A stretch of 64,000 nt of DNA, from contig DASVVE010000065.1 in NCBI GenBank assembly GCA_036386675.1, positions 11,408 through 75,407 of the forward strand. The letters run 5' to 3'. The notes below the pieces were generated by a model. The model was not told the DNA's origin, made no database searches, and saw only the letters and a list, made by a program, of their open reading frames with translations. The first letter of the stretch is position 1. The number at the start of each line of letters is the position of its first letter. The DNA is from Chloroflexia bacterium. GTDB taxonomy: Bacteria > Chloroflexota > Chloroflexia > QHBQ01 > JADMIH01. Shown one piece after another: positions 10,901-57,391 of this stretch. Made by a program: the position numbers and the translations under genes.

Positions 10901-11069
10901 GCACGACGACGGAGACAGTGGGGATTTTGGATTTTGGATTTTGGATTTTGGATTGTTCGGAGAAAGAAGATACAGCGCGCTCAAGGAGAGGCTCGTTGCT
11001 CGTCGGCTGGACCGACGGAGATGTATCGACGGGTATGTGATCAGGAGAGTGGTTCAAGCTAGAGAGCAC
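7983..11069 (-). CDS. Fused GT2 (GT-A) and GT4-like (GT-B) bifunctional glycosyltransferase with an uncharacterised approximately 230-aa C-terminal domain. Start codon is uncertain.
   Basis: N-terminal SVVVLNYNG...LLLVDNGSADGS (GT2). Middle GT-B Rossmann domain with an E-x7-E-like region (RFVYGGIF...CGLPVIHAAFSEVAGVI). An N-terminal stretch is encoded by a GGATTTT heptamer array. Confidence 0.8.
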   Translation of the reverse strand: MLSSLNHSPDHIPVDTSPSVQPTSNEPLLERAVSSFSEQSKIQNPKSKIPTVSVVVLNYNGLRHLETCFTSLLSLDYPKDRLELLLVDNGSADGSLEFMRERFPTVRLVETGSNLGFAAGNNYGAERASGEYVAFLNNDTRVEPYWLTELVNSLLAGAAQGVVCTSSLMLDWAGKKIDFYSGSVNFHGFGFQPSYGLPVDAVHPEARELLFACGGSMLIRREVFLHAGGFDPDYFAFFEDVDLGWRLWLLGHRITLTPTAITYHRHHGTATDVGNHRWQVIYERNALYTIYKNYEQSNLDKILPAALLLLGQRVVRFMELGGVQLGDYDFTQARPTQSVEAGTDHVHRNGIATLLAADEFRATIEKMTPKREWLQANRKRTDEELFARFGQPGRVHLLNHETDAPYSAAHHAVLHEFGIEQLWDGQPKDVLLISPDVLPVGDIPASGSGIRAWALGKGLESRGHKVRFTMPKAAIQGRESQVPLEYVRGAWTPETLQSMVDTLAPEVIVSCGWPNLTWLPRANLPVALDLTGPHLLERIYQEHLDARANAEEKLVALERADFFTCISERQRYYFTAWLAQAGVHPDDIGNSLQVIPYSLDPEQPQHVWPQDWGGQEVRFVYGGIFLPWQNPAPALLAVASELQEQGRGRLEVIGGKHPFHAVHTGGFGPLVDQLATMPSVSMSGLLPHDALVERYTLAHVAVDVMQPNAERQLAFPSRTVHYLWCGLPVIHAAFSEVAGVIREHEAGWIVRHDDPDGLRAIVASILADPSEARRRGENAARLARERFTWDLTVDALDRFVRDPYIRSARMSRTARRDEHSTLRDPSRYVTAGGIAPHVDGLVPSQPQAARKLQTVHDRRRTVPAQVRARANEVLRSVKGAVSAPLAGQVQLPELVAGHSLGQRFYVAETGLSGVRVQVETFGRRNTSRLFLRLRDNPGASVDLFHIEIPTHNLTQGQLLALRFPPIPDSAGRAFYFVAESPDGVPGDAISLRGSARSGDLRAQRYDDGIPASGYLVMSLEYNGVTGER
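10922..10955 (+). repeat. Tandem heptanucleotide array (GGATTTT)x4 + GGATTG inside the 5' coding region of the fusion GT
   Basis: Read directly: ggattttggattttggattttggattttggattg. Translated as QSKIQNPKSKIP in the ORF. Confidence 0.9.
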
Positions 11070-11100
11070 CTTGCAAGCGAAATAGTCACGATGAAGCGAC

Positions 11101-11136
11101 CAAATCTAAAATCTAAAATCCAAAATCAGAAATACG
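11101..11136 (-). repeat. Tandem heptanucleotide array (GATTTTR)n in inverted orientation, in the 5' leader of the fusion GT gene
   Basis: caaatctaaaatctaaaatccaaaatcagaaatacg is the reverse complement of a GATTTTG/GATTTTA array. It forms an inverted pair with 10922-10955 across the start codon. Confidence 0.85.
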
Positions 11137-11140
11137 TCCT

Positions 11141-12463
11141 CTATTTTCCCAGCAGGCGGGAGACGCGGCGAGTCAGGCGAAGCACTCGGCCCTGCTCGAT
11201 CCCTTGTAGGAGCTTCTCAAGGTAGAGGATATGTTCGTCTTTGGTGCGTAGCTCATTGGTGAGGCGAGACTCCAGATTGGCGATGTGCTGGTCCTTGGAC
11301 GCTAGCTCCCGGTTCATCTCGTCCAACTGTTGCAGGTCGTGGTGGGCGCGGTCGAGTTGCAAGTCCAGCACGGCCAGGCGCTGCTCCATGCCCGCTATGT
11401 GGCGGTCGCGCGCCTCGAGTTGTTGGCGCAGCAGGCGGTCCTCGTGGTTGGCGGTCTTGAGGTCCAACAGCGTCATGAGCACCTGCGTGAGTTGCAGGCG
11501 CATGGTGTTAGCAGTGTCGCTGCTCGTTAACGGCGGGTACGCTGCCTGTATCCGCTCAAGCGCCGGTTCGAGGCCAGGTCGCACCGCCACTACCACCCCC
11601 CGATAAGCGGGCGCGGTCCGGTCCGAGTCGGAGAACGTCAGGTTGTAGAAGCGGTCGAGGGTACGCTCGAAGCCACTAGCTTTCTCGTCGCGTAGCGAAA
11701 TAAGGTAGTGTTTAGCTATCATCATCAACAGCCAGTTGTAGACGTTGGCTGCCGGGAAGGAATGAGTACGCCAGCCGTTGCGCTCGAACGCGTCACCCGT
11801 CGAGGAGAAATCAGGCAGGCCGAAATCGCGGTGCTCCCTCAGCTGCTCCTGCTGGGCATCCAATATCCAACGTATATATTCGTCCAGGGTCTCCTCGGCC
11901 ACGTCCGCTTCCACCGACTGCACGGGGTTAATCAACACGCAGGCGTGGCGGGCCACCCGCATCATCTCGGTGAGAAAGCGGTCGCGCTCTGTGTTGGGGA
12001 TATGTTCCAGGGTGTCGAGCGCCGTGACGATATCGAAGGAGCGGTCTGGGTAAGGCAGGTCCATGCCCGAACCCTGCGTGTAGTTGGGGATCGAGCCGTC
12101 GTCCGAGACCACGTCGAGCACGTGCACGTCAAAGTAGACTGGGCTGACGAAATGGTGCAGCACGCCAGGATAGCCGCCCACGTCGAGTATTTGGGATTTC
12201 GGATTTCGGATTTCGGATTGGTTGGGAGCCTGGGAAATACCGGAGATGGAGTCGGGTGACGTGCGGCTGCCGAAGCTCACGTCGGCCATGCTCTCAAGCA
12301 GGATAGTGAGCACGTTCTCGGCGATGCGCATGCGGCCATACTGGTCGAAGGGTAGGGAAAGTAAGTCGCCCTCGCGGGGGGCAAGGCTAGCCTCGAAATC
12401 CTGTCTCTGCAAGGCTGGGACTGCTCCAATCTGGGGTCTGCGTTCTGCGGGGTAGTATAACAC
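11141..12463 (-). CDS. Class I SAM-dependent methyltransferase with a C-terminal coiled-coil region
   Basis: Motif I ILDVGGYPG, followed by acidic post-I and motif II features. C-terminal heptad-like repeats (LESRLTNELRTKDEHILYLEKLL ...). Lies in the glycosyltransferase operon. Confidence 0.75.
   Translation of the reverse strand: MLYYPAERRPQIGAVPALQRQDFEASLAPREGDLLSLPFDQYGRMRIAENVLTILLESMADVSFGSRTSPDSISGISQAPNQSEIRNPKSQILDVGGYPGVLHHFVSPVYFDVHVLDVVSDDGSIPNYTQGSGMDLPYPDRSFDIVTALDTLEHIPNTERDRFLTEMMRVARHACVLINPVQSVEADVAEETLDEYIRWILDAQQEQLREHRDFGLPDFSSTGDAFERNGWRTHSFPAANVYNWLLMMIAKHYLISLRDEKASGFERTLDRFYNLTFSDSDRTAPAYRGVVVAVRPGLEPALERIQAAYPPLTSSDTANTMRLQLTQVLMTLLDLKTANHEDRLLRQQLEARDRHIAGMEQRLAVLDLQLDRAHHDLQQLDEMNRELASKDQHIANLESRLTNELRTKDEHILYLEKLLQGIEQGRVLRLTRRVSRLLGK
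12194..12222 (+). repeat. Tandem heptanucleotide array (GGATTTC)x3 + GGATTGG inside the methyltransferase coding region
   Basis: gggatttcggatttcggatttcggattgg. Translated as QSEIRNPKSQI, the same frame and peptide pattern as in the GT gene. Confidence 0.9.
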
Positions 12464-12503
12464 GTGAAACGTGAAACGTGAAACGTGAAACGTGAAACGT
12501 GAT
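12462..12503 (+). repeat. Tandem heptanucleotide array (ACGTGAA)x6 in the divergent promoter region between the methyltransferase and the EEP gene
   Basis: acgtgaaacgtgaaacgtgaaacgtgaaacgtgaaacgtgatgg. Starts 1 nt after the methyltransferase start codon position. Confidence 0.9.
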
Positions 12504-12545
12504 GGGGTTTGGCAACGTTAAGGGTGTAAGACTGTTTGGAGGTGG

Positions 12546-14735: not shown

Positions 14736-14749
14736 GGGTGCCATCCTTT

Positions 14750-14784
14750 CGATTTTGGATTTTAGATTTCGGATTTTGGATTGC
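14750..14784 (+). repeat. Tandem heptanucleotide array (GATTTTG/GATTTTA/GATTTCG)n in the 5' leader directly upstream of the mrp/apbC RBS
   Basis: cgattttggattttagatttcggattttggattgc. Ends with GGATTG like the other arrays. Confidence 0.9.
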
Positions 14785-15027: not shown

Positions 15028-17520
15028 ATGACTTCGGATGTATCTACCAGGACCGTGCTCCACGGAGCGGCGTCTCACTCGCGCACTCGGCGGATGCTTA
15101 TGCTGATTGGCCCCCCTGCCCTCTTCATGCTGCTCAGCGCATTGTTCCTGTGGCGGCCCATAGTCACGGGGCAGGTCTATTTGCCCACCGACCTGAGCTA
15201 CAAGTACGACTACATGTGGATAGGTCACGAGCCGCCCGCGGGCACGAAGATAGACCAGAACCACACCGTATCCGACGTGTCCGACTATTTCTATCCCTCC
15301 GTTACCTACGCTATCGAGCGCCTGCGCGCCGGGAACTTTCCCCTGTGGAACCCCTACATCCTGACCGGAACCCCCTTCTTTGCCTCAGGCCAGCAGGCAG
15401 TGTTGGACCCTGTAAACCTTATGGCTTTCCTGGCGGGGCCGCACGACTACTGGACCTGGGCGGCCTGGCTGAGGCTGGCGCTGCTGGGCTTTACCACCTA
15501 CGGGTTCATGCGCGCGCTCGGCAGGAACGCGGCGGCTGGAATAGCGTCGGGTGTGGTTTTCATGGTGTGCGGGTTTGCCGTCGTATGGCTCAATTACGCC
15601 ATTACCTGGTCCCTTGCCTGGATGCCCGCGCTTTTCTGGGCGAGCACGCGGCTCTTGCAGACCGGGCGGCTGCCGTGGATAGGGCTTACCGGAGTGGCAA
15701 TGGGCGCGTTACTGCTCAGTGGGCACCCGGAAACGCAGTTCCTGTGCGGGCTGTTGTGGGCGGCCTACATGGTGTATGCCCTGTTCGTTTTCAGGGCGAG
15801 TACGAGACAGCGGTTTGCCGGGTCTGGACAGGTCGCTGCCGCTGTGGCCCTGGGCCTGGGCATGGGCGCGGTGCAGTTCGTACCCACGCTCGACTTCATG
15901 GTCTCGAGCGGCGCATTCGGCGCGCGTTCCACCGACGTCCAGCCCTTCAACCTTGGAGAGACGGCGTTGCGCTTCATCAGCCAGCTATTCCCCAATTGGA
16001 CGGGCACCCCGCTGGCCGACACTTATTGGGTGCGTCCCGAACTCACCAATTTCAACGAGCAGACCGGTTATATAGGCATCCTCGCCCTCGGGTTGGGTGC
16101 GCTGGGTGCCGCGTCGATGTGGAAGCGCGACCGGCTGGTGCCTTTCTTCGGCATGTGTTCGGTGCTCGCGCTCCTGGTAGCAATACGCGCGCCCGGTTTC
16201 CACCTTGTGAAGGCGTTGCCCGTATTGAGCGCAGGGCATGGGGTGCGCTGGCTGGTAGTCGTGTCGTTCTTCGGGGCGGTGCTGGCCGGGTACGGCGTCG
16301 AGGCGCTGATGAAGCAGTCTTCCGGCTCGCGCAGGTTGAGGGATAGCGGGCTATGGCTGGCGAGTGGCGCGCTTGCGGCGTTCGGTCTCATGCTGGCGAT
16401 CTACCTGGGCATACGTGACCTTAGCTGGGACCGCGCCTGGAACCCGATGCTCAGCCACGTAGACATGGCGCGACTCCTCTATCCCGCGCAACTGGCTAAT
16501 AACTGGCCGGTGGTCTTCCTGGGGCTGGGGGCGCTCGTAGTGCTCGCCCGCTGGAGGGGCTTGATACCGGCGGCTGCCTTGCCCACGCTCATCGTGGCCC
16601 TGCTGTACGCCGACCTCTGGACGTTCGGCCATGGCTACAACCCCACAACGCCACGCGAGGCCATCATGCCGCCCACACAGGTGACAAGTTACCTGTCCGA
16701 ACACGCGGGCCACGACCGCATGGCGGGCACCATCAACCTGCTGCGCCCTAATGTTGCCATGCTGTTCGGCTTGCGCGATCTGCGCGGGTACGAGCCTATC
16801 GTAGACGATGCCTTCGCGCACCTGTATGAGGATTTCTACCACCAGTTGAGCACTCCCGTGTTCGACGTGCAACGCAAGCAAGACCTGGAGCTTACCGCGA
16901 TGGAGCAGCGCCAGTTGAACATTGCCGGGGTGCGCTACGTCGCCACCGTCCGCAAGCCCAGGGTGGACGGCAGCGCCAGGCCCTACACGTTCATCCTACA
17001 GGAGCAACGCGCCGCGCTTTATGAGAACCTCGAAGCGTTCCCCCGCGCCTATGTCGTATTCGGCTCCCGCGTCGTTCCTGACACGGACGAAGCCACTGCG
17101 GTCCTGCGATCGCCGGAACTGGACCCAGGTCGCACTATCGTGCTGGCTTCCGGCCAGGAAGTAGCCCCTCCACCCGGCTTGGACAGGACCACCGCTCTCG
17201 TAACGTGGCTGGCGGATGAACCTGAACGAGTCGAGTTAGAGGTCACCCTGCCGCAAGCAGGTTGGCTCGTCTTAAGCGACAATTTCGCGAGCGGTTGGGA
17301 GGCTATGCTGGACGACAACCCGGCACCACTCCTGCGGGGAAACGTGGCCTTTCGCGCGGTGGCCGTACCGGCAGGGACGCACAACATCAGCTTCCACTAC
17401 CGGCCCGCCCTCTTCTTCGTCGCCGCGACTATAAGTACCCTGTCTGCCGCACTCGCACTCAGCCTGGGCCTAATACACCTCATACGGCGGTCTCGTCGCT
17501 CTAGCCCCACTAACCACTAA
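15028..17520 (+). CDS. Large polytopic membrane protein, YfhO-like / GT-C-type (putative glycosylation or glycan export function)
   Basis: At least 12 predicted TM helices over the first approximately 480 aa, a approximately 300-aa soluble domain, and a terminal TM helix; this architecture is typical of YfhO-family proteins. The overlapping 511-aa +2 frame ORF has aberrant composition and is rejected. Confidence 0.5.
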   Translation: MTSDVSTRTVLHGAASHSRTRRMLMLIGPPALFMLLSALFLWRPIVTGQVYLPTDLSYKYDYMWIGHEPPAGTKIDQNHTVSDVSDYFYPSVTYAIERLRAGNFPLWNPYILTGTPFFASGQQAVLDPVNLMAFLAGPHDYWTWAAWLRLALLGFTTYGFMRALGRNAAAGIASGVVFMVCGFAVVWLNYAITWSLAWMPALFWASTRLLQTGRLPWIGLTGVAMGALLLSGHPETQFLCGLLWAAYMVYALFVFRASTRQRFAGSGQVAAAVALGLGMGAVQFVPTLDFMVSSGAFGARSTDVQPFNLGETALRFISQLFPNWTGTPLADTYWVRPELTNFNEQTGYIGILALGLGALGAASMWKRDRLVPFFGMCSVLALLVAIRAPGFHLVKALPVLSAGHGVRWLVVVSFFGAVLAGYGVEALMKQSSGSRRLRDSGLWLASGALAAFGLMLAIYLGIRDLSWDRAWNPMLSHVDMARLLYPAQLANNWPVVFLGLGALVVLARWRGLIPAAALPTLIVALLYADLWTFGHGYNPTTPREAIMPPTQVTSYLSEHAGHDRMAGTINLLRPNVAMLFGLRDLRGYEPIVDDAFAHLYEDFYHQLSTPVFDVQRKQDLELTAMEQRQLNIAGVRYVATVRKPRVDGSARPYTFILQEQRAALYENLEAFPRAYVVFGSRVVPDTDEATAVLRSPELDPGRTIVLASGQEVAPPPGLDRTTALVTWLADEPERVELEVTLPQAGWLVLSDNFASGWEAMLDDNPAPLLRGNVAFRAVAVPAGTHNISFHYRPALFFVAATISTLSAALALSLGLIHLIRRSRRSSPTNH

Positions 17521-17540
17521 CCACTAACCACTAACCACTG
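17508..17540 (+). repeat. Tandem heptanucleotide array (CTAACCA)x4.5 overlapping the stop of the YfhO-like gene, upstream of folE
   Basis: cactaaccactaaccactaaccactaaccactgag. A single inverted copy (tggttag) lies 30 bp downstream, next to a TATACT -10-like hexamer. Confidence 0.9.
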
Positions 17541-19239: not shown

Positions 19240-19247
19240 GTCTAGCC

Positions 19248-19283
19248 TCACGGAGGACCTTACGGAGGACCTTACGGAGGTAA
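19248..19283 (+). repeat. 12-nt direct repeat (CGGAGGACCTTA)x2.5 just downstream of the phosphotransferase stop
   Basis: cacggaggaccttacggaggaccttacggaggtaa. Confidence 0.8.
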
Positions 19284-19306: not shown

Positions 19307-19437
19307 GTCATTTCGAGCGGAGTGAGAAATCTCGTCCTCTACCCCGATGCTCCGTTATTCCTGTGAGACTCTGTGGCTGAGAGAAAGGTGGTATTTGGGT
19401 GGTGAAAGGCGAGATTTCTCACTCCGCTCGAAATGAC
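19307..19437. repeat. 131-bp element bounded by 28-bp perfect inverted repeats (MITE-like or long hairpin), copy 1
   Basis: GTCATTTCGAGCGGAGTGAGAAATCTCG at 19307-19334 is the exact reverse complement of 19410-19437. Intergenic between convergent genes. Confidence 0.85.
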
Positions 19438-19504
19438 AGAGGGGAAGATGGTTCTACAACTTCCCCCTCGCTCGTATTCACGCACCAACAATAGCAAGCC
19501 GCAT

Positions 19505-19540
19505 CACGTTTCACGTTTCAGCACCACGTTTCACGTTTCA
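19505..19540 (-). repeat. GAAACGT heptamer array (two doublets) overlapping the stop of the GNAT gene
   Basis: cacgtttcacgtttca gcac cacgtttcacgtttca is the reverse complement of (TGAAACG)n. Same unit and same terminal GAAACGTGATG as at 12462 and 54667. Confidence 0.85.
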
Positions 19541-20061
19541 CCAACCAGTCTGTCCAGCCCCTCCCTATCGAGCCTGTAGATGTGCCAGTCAGCCAGATGG
19601 CGGGCACCCAACCGCTCGTAGAAGTTGATGGCGTGTTGGTTCCAGTCGAGCACGGCCCACTCGAAGCGACCGCAGCCCCGGCGTATCGCTTCCTCGGCGC
19701 AATGGCTGAAGAGGGCGTACCCCACACGCCTGCCTCGGTACTCCTCTAGCACAAATAAGTCTTCCAGGTACAGGGTCGGCAGGGCCAGGAAGGTGGAGTA
19801 AGTCTCAAAGACGAAGGCGTACCCTGCAACGTCACCCTCGTGCTCGGCAAGGAAGATCTCAAACCGGGGCCGGGTGCCAAAAGCATCGTCCAGGAGGCGC
19901 GACTGTGCCGTCGCGTCGGGGGGAGGTAACTTCTCGAAGTCAGCCAGCGCGGTAATAAGACGCACGATGGCCGGCCCGTCCTGAGGCGTTGCGCGGCGGA
20001 CGCTCACGCCGGGCGTTTGGGACGCTATTTCACCTGCTGAATTAGACATCGGTGGCTCCAA
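19531..20061 (-). CDS. GNAT-family N-acetyltransferase
   Basis: Acetyl-CoA-binding motif RGRRVGYALFSHCAEEAIRRGCGRFEW, with the GNAT beta4-alpha3 pattern. Confidence 0.8.
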   Translation of the reverse strand: MEPPMSNSAGEIASQTPGVSVRRATPQDGPAIVRLITALADFEKLPPPDATAQSRLLDDAFGTRPRFEIFLAEHEGDVAGYAFVFETYSTFLALPTLYLEDLFVLEEYRGRRVGYALFSHCAEEAIRRGCGRFEWAVLDWNQHAINFYERLGARHLADWHIYRLDREGLDRLVGET

Positions 20062-22389: not shown

Positions 22390-22541
22390 CCCCCCTTGTC
22401 ATTCCGACCGCAGTGAGGAATCAGGTGGAAGTCGTGCATTGTTGCATTAGGGAGCAAAGCCGACAAGGCCACTCCTGTGCCCCAATTCAGCAGCGTTCCT
22501 ATCCACCTGATTCCTCACTGCGGTCGGAATGACAAGGGGGG
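22390..22541. repeat. Approximately 152-bp element bounded by 39-40-bp perfect inverted repeats (copy 2 of the family at 19307-19437)
   Basis: CCCCCTTGTCATTCCGACCGCAGTGAGGAATCAGGTGGA at 22391-22429 is the exact reverse complement of 22502-22540. The core GTCATTYCGASCGSAGTGAGRAATC is shared with copy 1. Confidence 0.85.
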
Positions 22542-25456: not shown

Positions 25457-25630
25457 ACAGCTTCTAAACGCCAAGACGCGGAGACGCCAAGAACCACGCC
25501 AAGCTAGGATTGTGGCACAAGCAAAAGGACCGGAGTGCAACATCACGTACTCCGGTCCTTTTTCTACTCTCCATACCTTATTTCTCTTGGCGCGTTCTCT
25601 GCGTCTCCGCGTCTTGGCGTTTAGTTACCC
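25457..25630. repeat. Approximately 170-bp cruciform-like intergenic repeat element with an embedded rho-independent terminator (copy A)
   Basis: Outer 24-bp perfect inverted repeat CTAAACGCCAAGACGCGGAGACGC / GCGTCTCCGCGTCTTGGCGTTTAG. Central hairpin GGACCGGAGT-loop-ACTCCGGTCC at 25527-25558, flanked by an A-run and a T-run. Shared core (CGCCAAG)x3 and TACTCTCCAWACCT. Confidence 0.85.
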
Positions 25631-31074: not shown

Positions 31075-31250
31075 TAGACGGAAACGCCAAGACGCAAAGA
31101 CGCCAAGGACCACGCCAAGTTTTGGCAGGTGTTCATAAGTAAAAGGAGCAGGGTACGACAGTACGTACCCTGCTCCTTTTTGTACTCTCCAAACCTCTAT
31201 ACTCTCTTGGCGCGTCCTTGGCGTCTTGGCGTCTTGGCGTTTCCGTCTGT
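31075..31250. repeat. Copy B of the cruciform-like repeat element with embedded terminator
   Basis: Outer inverted repeat AGACGGAAACGCCAAGACGC / GCGTCTTGGCGTTTCCGTCT. Central 13-bp hairpin GGAGCAGGGTACG / CGTACCCTGCTCC at 31145-31176 plus T5. Same flanking core as copy A. Confidence 0.85.
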
Positions 31251-54658: not shown

Positions 54659-54666
54659 TCCGGGTT

Positions 54667-54764
54667 CTGAAACTTGAAACGTGAAACGTGATGGTACTCA
54701 ACGCACCATTGCGATGCACATGAGACCACATACCACAAGCCACACCACGTTTCACGTTTCAGAA
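54667..54764. repeat. Inverted pair of GAAACGT heptamer arrays flanking a approximately 55-bp spacer
   Basis: ctgaaacttgaaacgtgaaacgtgatgg at 54667-54694 and cacgtttcacgtttca at 54748-54763. The right array overlaps the stop of the small ORF at 54759. Confidence 0.85.
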
Positions 54765-54914
54765 TGAGGGTGTCGGTGTCGTGGTGTTCATGTTCAGCCA
54801 CCAGAGTATCCAGCAGAAGGCGAAGCAGGCCCCGAGTATCAGCACTATAGTGAGGAGTGGGAGCAATATGTTGAGTACCGGGTTTCTCTTCCTGGTTGCA
54901 GGGCTACCGATCAT
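54759..54914 (-). CDS. Possible 51-aa single-pass membrane protein downstream of the helicase gene
   Basis: MIGSPATRKRNPVLNILLPLLTIVLILGACFAFCWILWWLNMNTTTPTPSF: basic N-terminus plus one strongly hydrophobic helix. Below the ORF-track length cut-off. Confidence 0.3.
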   Translation of the reverse strand: MIGSPATRKRNPVLNILLPLLTIVLILGACFAFCWILWWLNMNTTTPTPSF

Positions 54915-57310: not shown

Positions 57311-57391
57311 CATTATAAATTACGAATTACGAATTACTGGCGAACCGGCATCTTGTCATTCGTAATTCGTAATTCGTAATTCGTAATTACT
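57311..57391. repeat. Inverted pair of ATTACGA heptamer arrays (3 + 4.5 units) around an 18-nt spacer in the helicase 5' leader
   Basis: aaattacgaattacgaattac ... cattcgtaattcgtaattcgtaattcgtaatt; predicted approximately 20-bp stem. Confidence 0.9.

Follow-up and report, generated by a model that had tools for sequence, protein, structure and literature searches.

The tandem heptamer arrays (GAAACGT)n, present at three gene boundaries in a 64,000-nt stretch of DNA from a Chloroflexia bacterium (assembly GCA_036386675.1, contig DASVVE010000065.1, positions 11,408 to 75,407; hereafter the window), probably represent the arms of palindromic repeats, a family that is scattered between genes and common in Chloroflexota. 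They would thus be hairpin modules akin to short tandemly repeated repetitive (STRR) sequences, repetitive extragenic palindromic (REP) sequences and MITEs (miniature inverted-repeat transposable elements). An earlier note on this DNA had described a dispersed family of short tandem heptamer arrays in a high-GC, non-cyanobacterial host. Both points stand, with three loci in the window, arrays on multiple contigs per metagenome-assembled genome (MAG), and a host that belongs to an uncultured lineage of Chloroflexia MAGs, with relatives among Chloroflexia and other Chloroflexota MAGs. What that note missed is the larger context: rather than standing alone, the arrays make up the arms or half-arms of composite hairpin elements. 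The structure of these elements is well supported, and it is their function and propagation that we infer.

The sites are numbered in order of position: site 1 (12462-12502), site 2 (19504-19541) and site 3 (54663-54766). GAAACGT runs exceed chance: the 14-mer GAAACGTGAAACGT, with at most one mismatch, has nine matches in the window versus 0.00 in 100 dinucleotide shuffles, and the heptamer itself occurs 18 times versus 5.0 ± 2.3 expected from the shuffled window, 13 of the 18 lying inside the three sites. Period 7 is uniquely over-represented in this window of 61% GC, with five arrays of at least three copies compared with none or one for each other period from 4 to 12. Other AT-rich heptamer units are also present (GGATTTT, GGATTTC, TTTGGAT, CCACTAA and AATTACG).

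In a scan of one genome per GTDB species (185,579 species), at least 118 stretches with (GAAACGT)3 were found, loci being selected for three or more perfect units. Among the matches listed, 68 from 39 MAGs belong to Chloroflexota (about 58%, by record title), covering Chloroflexia, Anaerolineae, Ardenticatenia, Caldilineae, Thermoflexales and Limnocylindria, that is, five or more classes; 41 more are scattered over phyla such as Verrucomicrobiota and Gemmatimonadota and include a Desulfococcaceae isolate, some of the MAG contigs being possibly mis-binned. Genomes with multiple matches are, in the same set of listed matches, mostly Chloroflexota. The 8-kb neighbourhoods retrieved around the arrays, 854 kb in total and selected only for GAAACGT, hold 99 further period-7 arrays of other units (at least three copies) versus 30 arrays of all other periods together, which makes richness in heptamer arrays a property of these genomes. 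Units shared with the window include AATTACG, AACCACT, AAAATCC and AAATCCG.

Architecture and gene context of the elements

The architecture was derived from 200 GAAACGT arrays in the retrieved loci. Wherever two arrays on opposite strands lie no more than 400 nt apart, their order is (GAAACGT)n...(ACGTTTC)n, in 34 adjacent pairs and in 44 when all combinations are counted, and the reverse arrangement was found zero times. Because this order reads the same from either strand, the polarity is an intrinsic outside-to-inside orientation. Beside the 85 apparently solo arrays, a decayed reverse arm was detected on the inner side in 21 cases and on the outer side in one. In 22 of 29 pairs the two arms differ by no more than one unit, and the mode is 3.4 units. 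Just outside the arm, where GGTTCT forms the outer flank, GGTTC shows a 5-fold enrichment; GATGCGGCTTG forms the inner flank. Interiors fall into two classes, of about 51-54 nt and about 258-271 nt, long-class loops enclosing a second palindrome (CTGTCATCCTGAGCGTAGCGAAGGATC...). A full element runs from GGTTCT through about three GAAACGT units to GATGCGGCTTG, the loop and CAAGCCGCATC, and then through about three ACGTTTC units to AGAACC. Outside the stems, copies from a single MAG share only about 60% identity.

The suggestion that all copies end alike did not survive closer inspection: in the window GAAACGTGATG closes three of the five arrays, and GAAACGTGGTG (GTGGTG) closes the other two, which are the outer doublet at site 2 and the minus-strand arm at site 3. 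A GATG end is a real conserved feature: in the 118 other loci, no hexamer follows the last unit more often than GATGCG (35 arrays). The CACGTG palindromic core ascribed to the unit in general is confined to the left edge of site 1. Three roles had been offered for the arrays, namely protein-binding iterons, slippage hotspots and RNA structure modules, and the last fits best, the arrays being palindrome arms with a single fixed polarity. Iterons are 17-22-bp direct repeats at an origin beside a rep gene; here the unit has 7 nt and the loci are scattered among metabolic and envelope genes.

The same features bear on the view that these are independent neutral microsatellites, in which AT-rich heptamers were expanded by local polymerase slippage with no shared origin or function. 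Whatever the unit, the dominant period is 7; orthologues vary in unit number, arrays that are mosaics of mutated units resemble ordinary satellite evolution, and heptanucleotides are the commonest class of long simple sequence repeats in many prokaryotes (cited in MacGregor, 2015, PMC4679880). Slippage of this kind leaves unexplained the 44:0 polarity, the non-repeat flanks shared across genomes and the matched arm lengths, as well as the conservation of 28 of 28 positions at site 1 at a divergence where about 45% of neutral sites have changed. Polarity and flank conservation largely refute this explanation, which we consider very improbable.

Gene context was analysed at loci of at least 55% GC, with approximate gene calls based on GC content at third codon positions, and 131 of 159 arrays lie outside the genes so called. 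The outer edge of the array faces a stop codon in 74 cases, at a median distance of 12 nt and often overlapping it, and a start codon in 41 cases, at a median of 52 nt. Paired elements typically span the gap from stop to start, the start codon following 14-18 nt past the right arm; few solo arrays (3 of 50) lie between divergent genes. When GA follows it, (GAAACGT)n carries TGA in all three frames, so that genes can end inside the forward arm, and the reverse arm is open (TFHVSRF).

That the arrays are always intergenic or at stops is true of the GAAACGT arrays in the window and fails for a sister array, (GAAATCC)3.7, which lies in frame within the methyltransferase coding sequence (12194-12219, minus strand; ...PNQSEIRNPKSQ followed by ILDVGG), directly ahead of SAM-binding motif I. 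One unit more or less would cause a frameshift there, and the tract is degenerate in the 86% orthologue.

The three sites and their orthologues

Site 3 (54663-54766, minus strand) is a complete short-class element, consisting of GGTTCT, two to three GAAACGT units, GTGATG, a loop of about 50 nt, CACCAC, two ACGTTTC units and AGAATG. The inverted pair reported near 54667-54764 was thus recovered, with arrays spanning 54669-54761: one at 54669-54691 on the plus strand, whose first unit is GAAACTT, and one at 54746-54761 on the minus strand, forming 19-nt arms that are 95% complementary. The element lies between the stop of a 51-aa open reading frame (ORF) and the ribosome-binding site and ATG of a D-glycerate dehydrogenase gene; by Pfam, the latter encodes a 2-hydroxyacid dehydrogenase (minus strand), downstream of the 51-aa ORF and of an MrfA/Hrq1-like helicase. 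The predicted RNA hairpin has a folding energy of -48.4 kcal/mol (z = -3.9). Relatives with conserved synteny were identified by means of the dehydrogenase and, for site 1, the EEP protein. An orthologue at 93% identity has arms of 3 and 4.4 units (2-3 in the window); further off, the element has decayed into other heptamers (87%) or has been replaced by an octamer array (80%), and in a 77% relative the right arm alone is left, at the same position before the ribosome-binding site.

Site 2 (19504-19541, minus strand) is a compound right arm, (GAAACGT)2 GGTGCT (GAAACGT)2, whose two doublets of 2.4 units (19504-19520 and 19525-19541) lie over the GNAT stop on the opposite strand, as described earlier. 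The TGA of the GNAT ORF, which ends ...GET*, is at 19531-19533, within the outer doublet, and the gene (minus strand) converges on an APH-family kinase gene (plus strand) by Pfam. Next to the arm is the conserved non-repeat right interior of the long class (19445-19507, plus strand; ...ATTCACGCACCAA...CAAGCCGCATCAC, also ...CAAGCCGCA), including the exact family inner flank at 19494-19507, and beyond it a nested palindrome of the second family (19307-19437; GTCATTTCGAGCGGAGTGAGAAATC...), positioned as within a long-class loop. Palindrome and right interior together align with seven long-class elements of other Chloroflexota MAGs. There is no left arm, and a 12-mer tandem repeat takes its place. 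Judged by this alignment, site 2 is the right half of a long-class element. The nested palindrome has a stem of about 36 bp (RNA fold z = -5.1), and between the window and its 86% orthologue in the relative L125 it shows paired, stem-preserving (compensatory) changes. The compound arm (...CAGAACC ACGTTTCACG...) recurs in two of the retrieved loci, L006 and L063; the L125 orthologue of the arm is shorter.

Two repeats at this site deserve mention in their own right. The palindrome family GTCAT...GGAATC/GAAATC has two copies in the window, at 22390-22541, where it stands alone, and at 19307-19437. One copy has 40-nt perfectly complementary arms, and the copies differ by compensatory changes from each other and from their orthologues. 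Relatives of this family are nested inside long-class GAAACGT elements of other MAGs, and no Rfam family matched it. The 12-mer tandem repeat CCTTACGGAGGA (19246-19280), at the position of the missing left arm, has three copies in the window, five in the ENA assembly and six in the JGI assembly of the same strain, and the 86% relative lacks it; no other repeat here varies at the population or assembly level. Assembly breaks occur at the site 2 element, and the ENA and Logan contigs of the same strain terminate inside it.

Site 1 (12462-12502, plus strand), ACGT(GAAACGT)5GA, lies between divergent genes for a class I methyltransferase (minus strand) and an EEP-family protein (plus strand); Pfam confirmed the methyltransferase, EEP and GNAT assignments made for the flanking genes. 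Six perfect units had been counted here. The array is indeed perfect, with 100% matches at period 7 in Tandem Repeats Finder (score 82), at 5.9 copies rather than six. Its inner flank (12499-12512, plus strand), GTGATGGGGTTTGG, is a diverged copy of the family inner flank GTGATGCGGCTTGC with three mismatches. Given this flank and the absence of a partner arm, site 1 is a solo left arm.

An orthologous array was found in all syntenic relatives, with five units in the window, four in L125-127 (three NCBI MAGs whose EEP proteins are 86% identical to that of the window) and three in L129 (69%). In a further relative, L130, site 1 is a compound 3+3 array joined by GGGTTCT, with an insertion sequence (IS) inserted upstream. 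Between the window and L129, (GAAACGT)3GATGGGG is identical at 28 of 28 positions and the 49-nt flank on the methyltransferase side at 45 of 49; in the flanking genes, identity at third codon positions is only 53-61%. Conservation of the array under neutrality has P of about 1e-6 to 1e-7. The 49-nt flank carries a 1-nt indel in L129 and is hence non-coding. On this comparison, array and outer flank are under purifying selection. The 5/4/3 series shows that unit number changes over evolutionary time and fits slipped-strand mispairing, in line with the replication slippage suggested earlier.

The conserved 49-nt outer flank (12413-12461, minus strand) is the leader to a likely TTG start of the methyltransferase gene (12412) and contains a candidate promoter, with an extended -10 sequence, TGtTATACT, at 12462-12454 that is a consensus match and not evidence of a promoter. 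A -35-like TTCACG derived from the array lies 17 nt upstream of TGtTATACT in all three lineages. For the plus-strand TATAAC, which would place the array in the 5' untranslated region (UTR) of the EEP gene, no convincing -35 or TG extension was seen. The array at site 1 was probably co-opted into the divergent control region of the methyltransferase and EEP genes, where it would supply the -35-like element.

Site 1 might also be read as a phase-variable contingency locus, in which gain and loss of units switch expression of the methyltransferase and EEP genes and hence cell-envelope glycans. The divergent promoter region has glycosyltransferase, YfhO and methyltransferase genes beside it, related species differ in unit number, and the hmw genes of Haemophilus influenzae offer a precedent. 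The same-strain assemblies speak otherwise: the three independent assemblies, those of JGI, ENA and the window, show no difference at any heptamer array, site 1 included, at the level of assembly consensus, in which minor variants are invisible, and the neighbouring 12-mer varies 3/5/6. Arrays of only three to five units are also below typical phase-variation lengths, and the predicted -35/-10 spacing is independent of unit number. A contingency locus is accordingly highly doubtful.

In L130, an 84% relative, the IS (181-1306; DDE_Tnp_1, ends ACGCTAATTCTG/CAGAATTAGCGT) lies between (TGTTACG)3 and the orthologous GAAACGT array and replaces the methyltransferase side of the locus. Heptamer arrays may thus serve as IS targets.

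Possible function and spread

Elements set so tightly between a stop codon and the next ribosome-binding site are likely to be transcribed as parts of mRNAs. The transcribed elements would fold into long, near-perfect hairpins, and these may act as modules for 3'-end protection, intercistronic processing or termination, possibly as substrates of RNase III, much as REP/BIME and Correia elements and the hmw heptamer hairpin of H. influenzae do. Reading the elements as REP/Correia-like hairpins carried in transcripts is the most economical option. Several observations weigh against arm modules of hairpin elements with such a role. Solo arrays (85) outnumber pairs (29), no U-tracts follow the hairpins, and complementarity between the two arms' inner flanks is not universal. 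Site 1 cannot have a hairpin role, the element at site 3 is dispensable where it has decayed or been replaced in relatives, and the period of 7 is left without explanation. The RNA role is one that we purely infer, and the tests of mobility described below gave no evidence of movement.

A different reading of the same arrays is that a conserved Chloroflexota protein recognizes GANNCGT in a 7-nt register, the arrays being operators or sites of post-transcriptional control, as proposed for the Beggiatoaceae TAACTGA repeats. TGAAACG has some resemblance to half-sites of the LacI/Cra type. Binding to single-stranded RNA or DNA is more plausible here than binding to DNA as such, and CspB-type OB folds are known to bind heptamer repeats (cited in PMC4679880). 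The recurrence of the unit across at least five Chloroflexota classes would agree with a reader protein, as would the sister units GATGCGT, GAAGCGT and GAGGCGT, which keep a CGTGA core with two variable positions, the perfectly conserved array under purifying selection in the promoter region of site 1, and some 20 cases of a start codon 4-30 nt beyond the end of (ACGTTTC)n. Against it, the arrays adjoin stops more often than starts, close relatives have lost or replaced the site 3 element, and no candidate binding protein was identified. Moreover, unrelated units (GGATTTT, AATTACG, CCACTAA and the octamers) share the architecture within one genome, so that one reader protein cannot explain the whole class. 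Taken together, we consider protein binding a rather unlikely basis for the family.

The sister elements illustrate this diversity of units. Like the GAAACGT elements, the GGATTTT and AATTACG arrays are arranged as inverted pairs, to the same design. At 10922-11133, arms of (GGATTTT)4.7 and (AAAATCY)n, 148 nt apart, fill the spacer between the methyltransferase and glycosyltransferase genes. At 57312-57388, arms of (AATTACG)2.9 and (CGTAATT)4.4 adjoin the TAA stop of a sortilin-like ORF. The GGATTTT-armed spacer is conserved in L125, the 86% relative, and has decayed in place in L129; overlapping glycosyltransferase and methyltransferase gene calls in L129 had looked like an empty site for this element, a candidate that was rejected when alignment revealed the orthologous spacer with decayed arms. 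A rule that the arm polarity places the stop codon first was likewise abandoned, as it fails for both the GGATTTT and the AATTACG families. Octamer-armed palindromes at 25464-25624 and 31076-31248 have arms ACGCCAAG/GACGCGGA and a small inner hairpin each, with copies 71-81% identical in other Chloroflexia MAGs (L007, L034 and L038). The other families of the window have 72-81% matches in the Chloroflexia MAGs that also carry GAAACGT arrays. A search for extra decayed copies in the window by means of the non-repeat flanks returned chance-level matches only.

Three arrays with other units lie exactly at gene boundaries in the window: (CCACTAA)4.7 at 17507-17539 supplies the TAA stop of a YfhO-like ORF, the AATTACG-family array at 57358-57388 adjoins the sortilin-like TAA, and (TTTGGAT)5.1 at 14747-14782 fills a divergent intergenic gap.

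Convergent terminal inverted arms around a short non-coding body of about 50 or 260 nt are what a classical MITE would present, that is, a non-autonomous transposon with heptamer arrays as terminal inverted repeats, moved by a DDE transposase in trans. The polarity, the conserved termini, the discrete size classes, the nesting, the multi-copy status and the assembly breaks all agree with such an origin. The tests of mobility do not. Target-site duplications in 25 elements were at chance level, with 0 nt in 16, 1 nt in 6 and 2 nt in 3. Clustering of the ORFs in the 854 kb around the 118 loci, which are 8-kb neighbourhoods and not whole genomes, revealed no recurrent transposase or other protein family, all clusters around the arrays being artefacts of translated arrays (...HVSRFTFHVSRFT...) and low-complexity ORFs. 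No convergent pair of arms in the retrieved loci encloses a transposase or any other gene. Orthologues at three loci include no clean empty site, the element being kept, decayed or replaced, and the low identity of copies outside the stems also argues against transposition of this kind. The DDE transposase of L130 has unrelated ends of its own and was merely inserted beside the array. We therefore judge a classical MITE improbable.

Nor did the elements resemble REP sequences in their termini: GTAG occurs in 10.3% of outer flanks versus 7.0% in the background, and CGTC is depleted. No REP-associated tyrosine transposase (RAYT, IS200/IS605-type) turned up in the ORF clustering, which did not include a whole-genome or Pfam-wide search for Y1 transposases. 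Rfam 15 gave no match in the window at gathering thresholds, and none for a long-class element at E values up to 1. In view of the absent target-site duplications, transposases, empty sites and REP head, the spread of these elements does not look like classical cut-and-paste transposition.

More tentatively, the palindromes with tandem-heptamer arms could form a distinct, phylum-wide class of element, spread or used by a machinery that reads a 7-nt register; of the readings other than dispersed hairpin modules, this is one to which we give some, if limited, credence. Such a machinery might be a single-strand enzyme, of HUH type or another, or else a regulator that binds RNA, compatible with strict polarity and no target duplication.

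The (GAAACGT)3 motif was also observed on 19 IMG/VR contigs (L136-L154), most with a GC content of about 0.6 and several other heptamer arrays, such as four AAAGCAG arrays in L140. These contigs probably represent phages, or pieces of host DNA, from similar hosts, which suggests that phages or prophage regions of such hosts share the repeat habit.

Relation to known repeats

Dispersed heptamer repeats of the STRR type have been known for more than 30 years, with no accepted origin or function. STRR1-3 have the units CCCCAGT, TTGGTCA and CAACAGT. The STRR sequences of heterocystous cyanobacteria and the GAAACGT arrays share tandem 7-nt units, several families per genome, dispersal and a mostly intergenic location. 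The latter differ in that they occur in Chloroflexota, in a high-GC and not a cyanobacterial host, with a unit unrelated to STRR1-3, and in that the arrays are short (mode of three units), with polar inverted arms and conserved non-repeat flanks. To our knowledge, inverted polar arms with conserved flanks are not part of the definition of STRR sequences.

REP sequences with their derivatives (BIME, REPIN) and Correia elements (NEMIS) are, like the GAAACGT elements, small, multi-copy, intergenic palindromes, located mostly downstream of or between cistrons, as singletons and inverted dimers. REP/BIME and Correia elements are transcribed as mRNA hairpins; those of Correia elements are substrates of RNase III and can carry promoter elements. 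The GAAACGT elements are distinguished by arms of tandem heptamers, by lacking the GTAG/CGTC head and the TA duplication, and by having no RAYT that turned up nearby.

A further parallel is found in the TAACTGA repeats of marine Beggiatoaceae, Cyanobacteria and Bacteroidetes, for which 169 direct sets and a single inverted one were described (MacGregor, 2015, PMC4679880). These too consist of a single heptamer in sets of two to six, intergenic and often just upstream of start codons, with stops in the forward and open frames in the reverse direction, a patchy range across phyla and many filamentous hosts. The GAAACGT arrays differ in unit and host phylum, and their inverted pairs are common and strictly polar. 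In Chloroflexus aurantiacus, of the same phylum, (GATAGRA)n satellites occur at 22 sites and were interpreted as probably transposed (Subirana and Messeguer, 2019, PMC6749651); the unit is another one, and that description includes neither a hairpin architecture nor flanks nor a cross-genome distribution. In the hmw1A and hmw2A genes of H. influenzae, an (ATCTTTC)n array in the 5' UTR was experimentally shown to be the arm of an RNA hairpin cut by RNase III (PMC12721329). There, as here, a heptamer array forms the arm of a long hairpin and unit number varies by slippage. The hmw array is a single phase-variable locus of at least 11 units opposite a G-rich, non-repeat arm, in contrast to the GAAACGT elements, which have three to five units, arrays in both arms, many loci per genome and no variation seen at the population level.

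In the literature collection searched, no paper on the GAAACGT array motif was found. As far as checked, the novelty lies in how the elements are organised, with inverted arms of strict polarity, flanks that are conserved, nested palindromes and a phylum-wide range. By an impression drawn from names, many of the taxa carrying arrays belong to groups that are largely filamentous (the Chloroflexota classes, Niastella and perhaps the Desulfococcaceae isolate HSG8), which echoes the mostly filamentous hosts of the STRR and TAACTGA repeats.

The elements are of practical relevance to annotation, since they end ORFs, break assemblies and can lie in frame within genes. The range of the family includes the named taxa Litorilinea aerophila and the genus Thermoflexus, where testing might be possible; complete or near-complete genomes with the array include those of Ca. 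Leptofilum proximum (JADJXK010000002.1, 5.9 Mb) and L. aerophila. If the elements are only decaying selfish hairpins, they would be a useful entry in repeat libraries and establish no new biological principle. If instead they do form a distinct class read in a 7-nt register, the same logic could underlie the STRR and TAACTGA repeats of other, mostly filamentous, bacteria.

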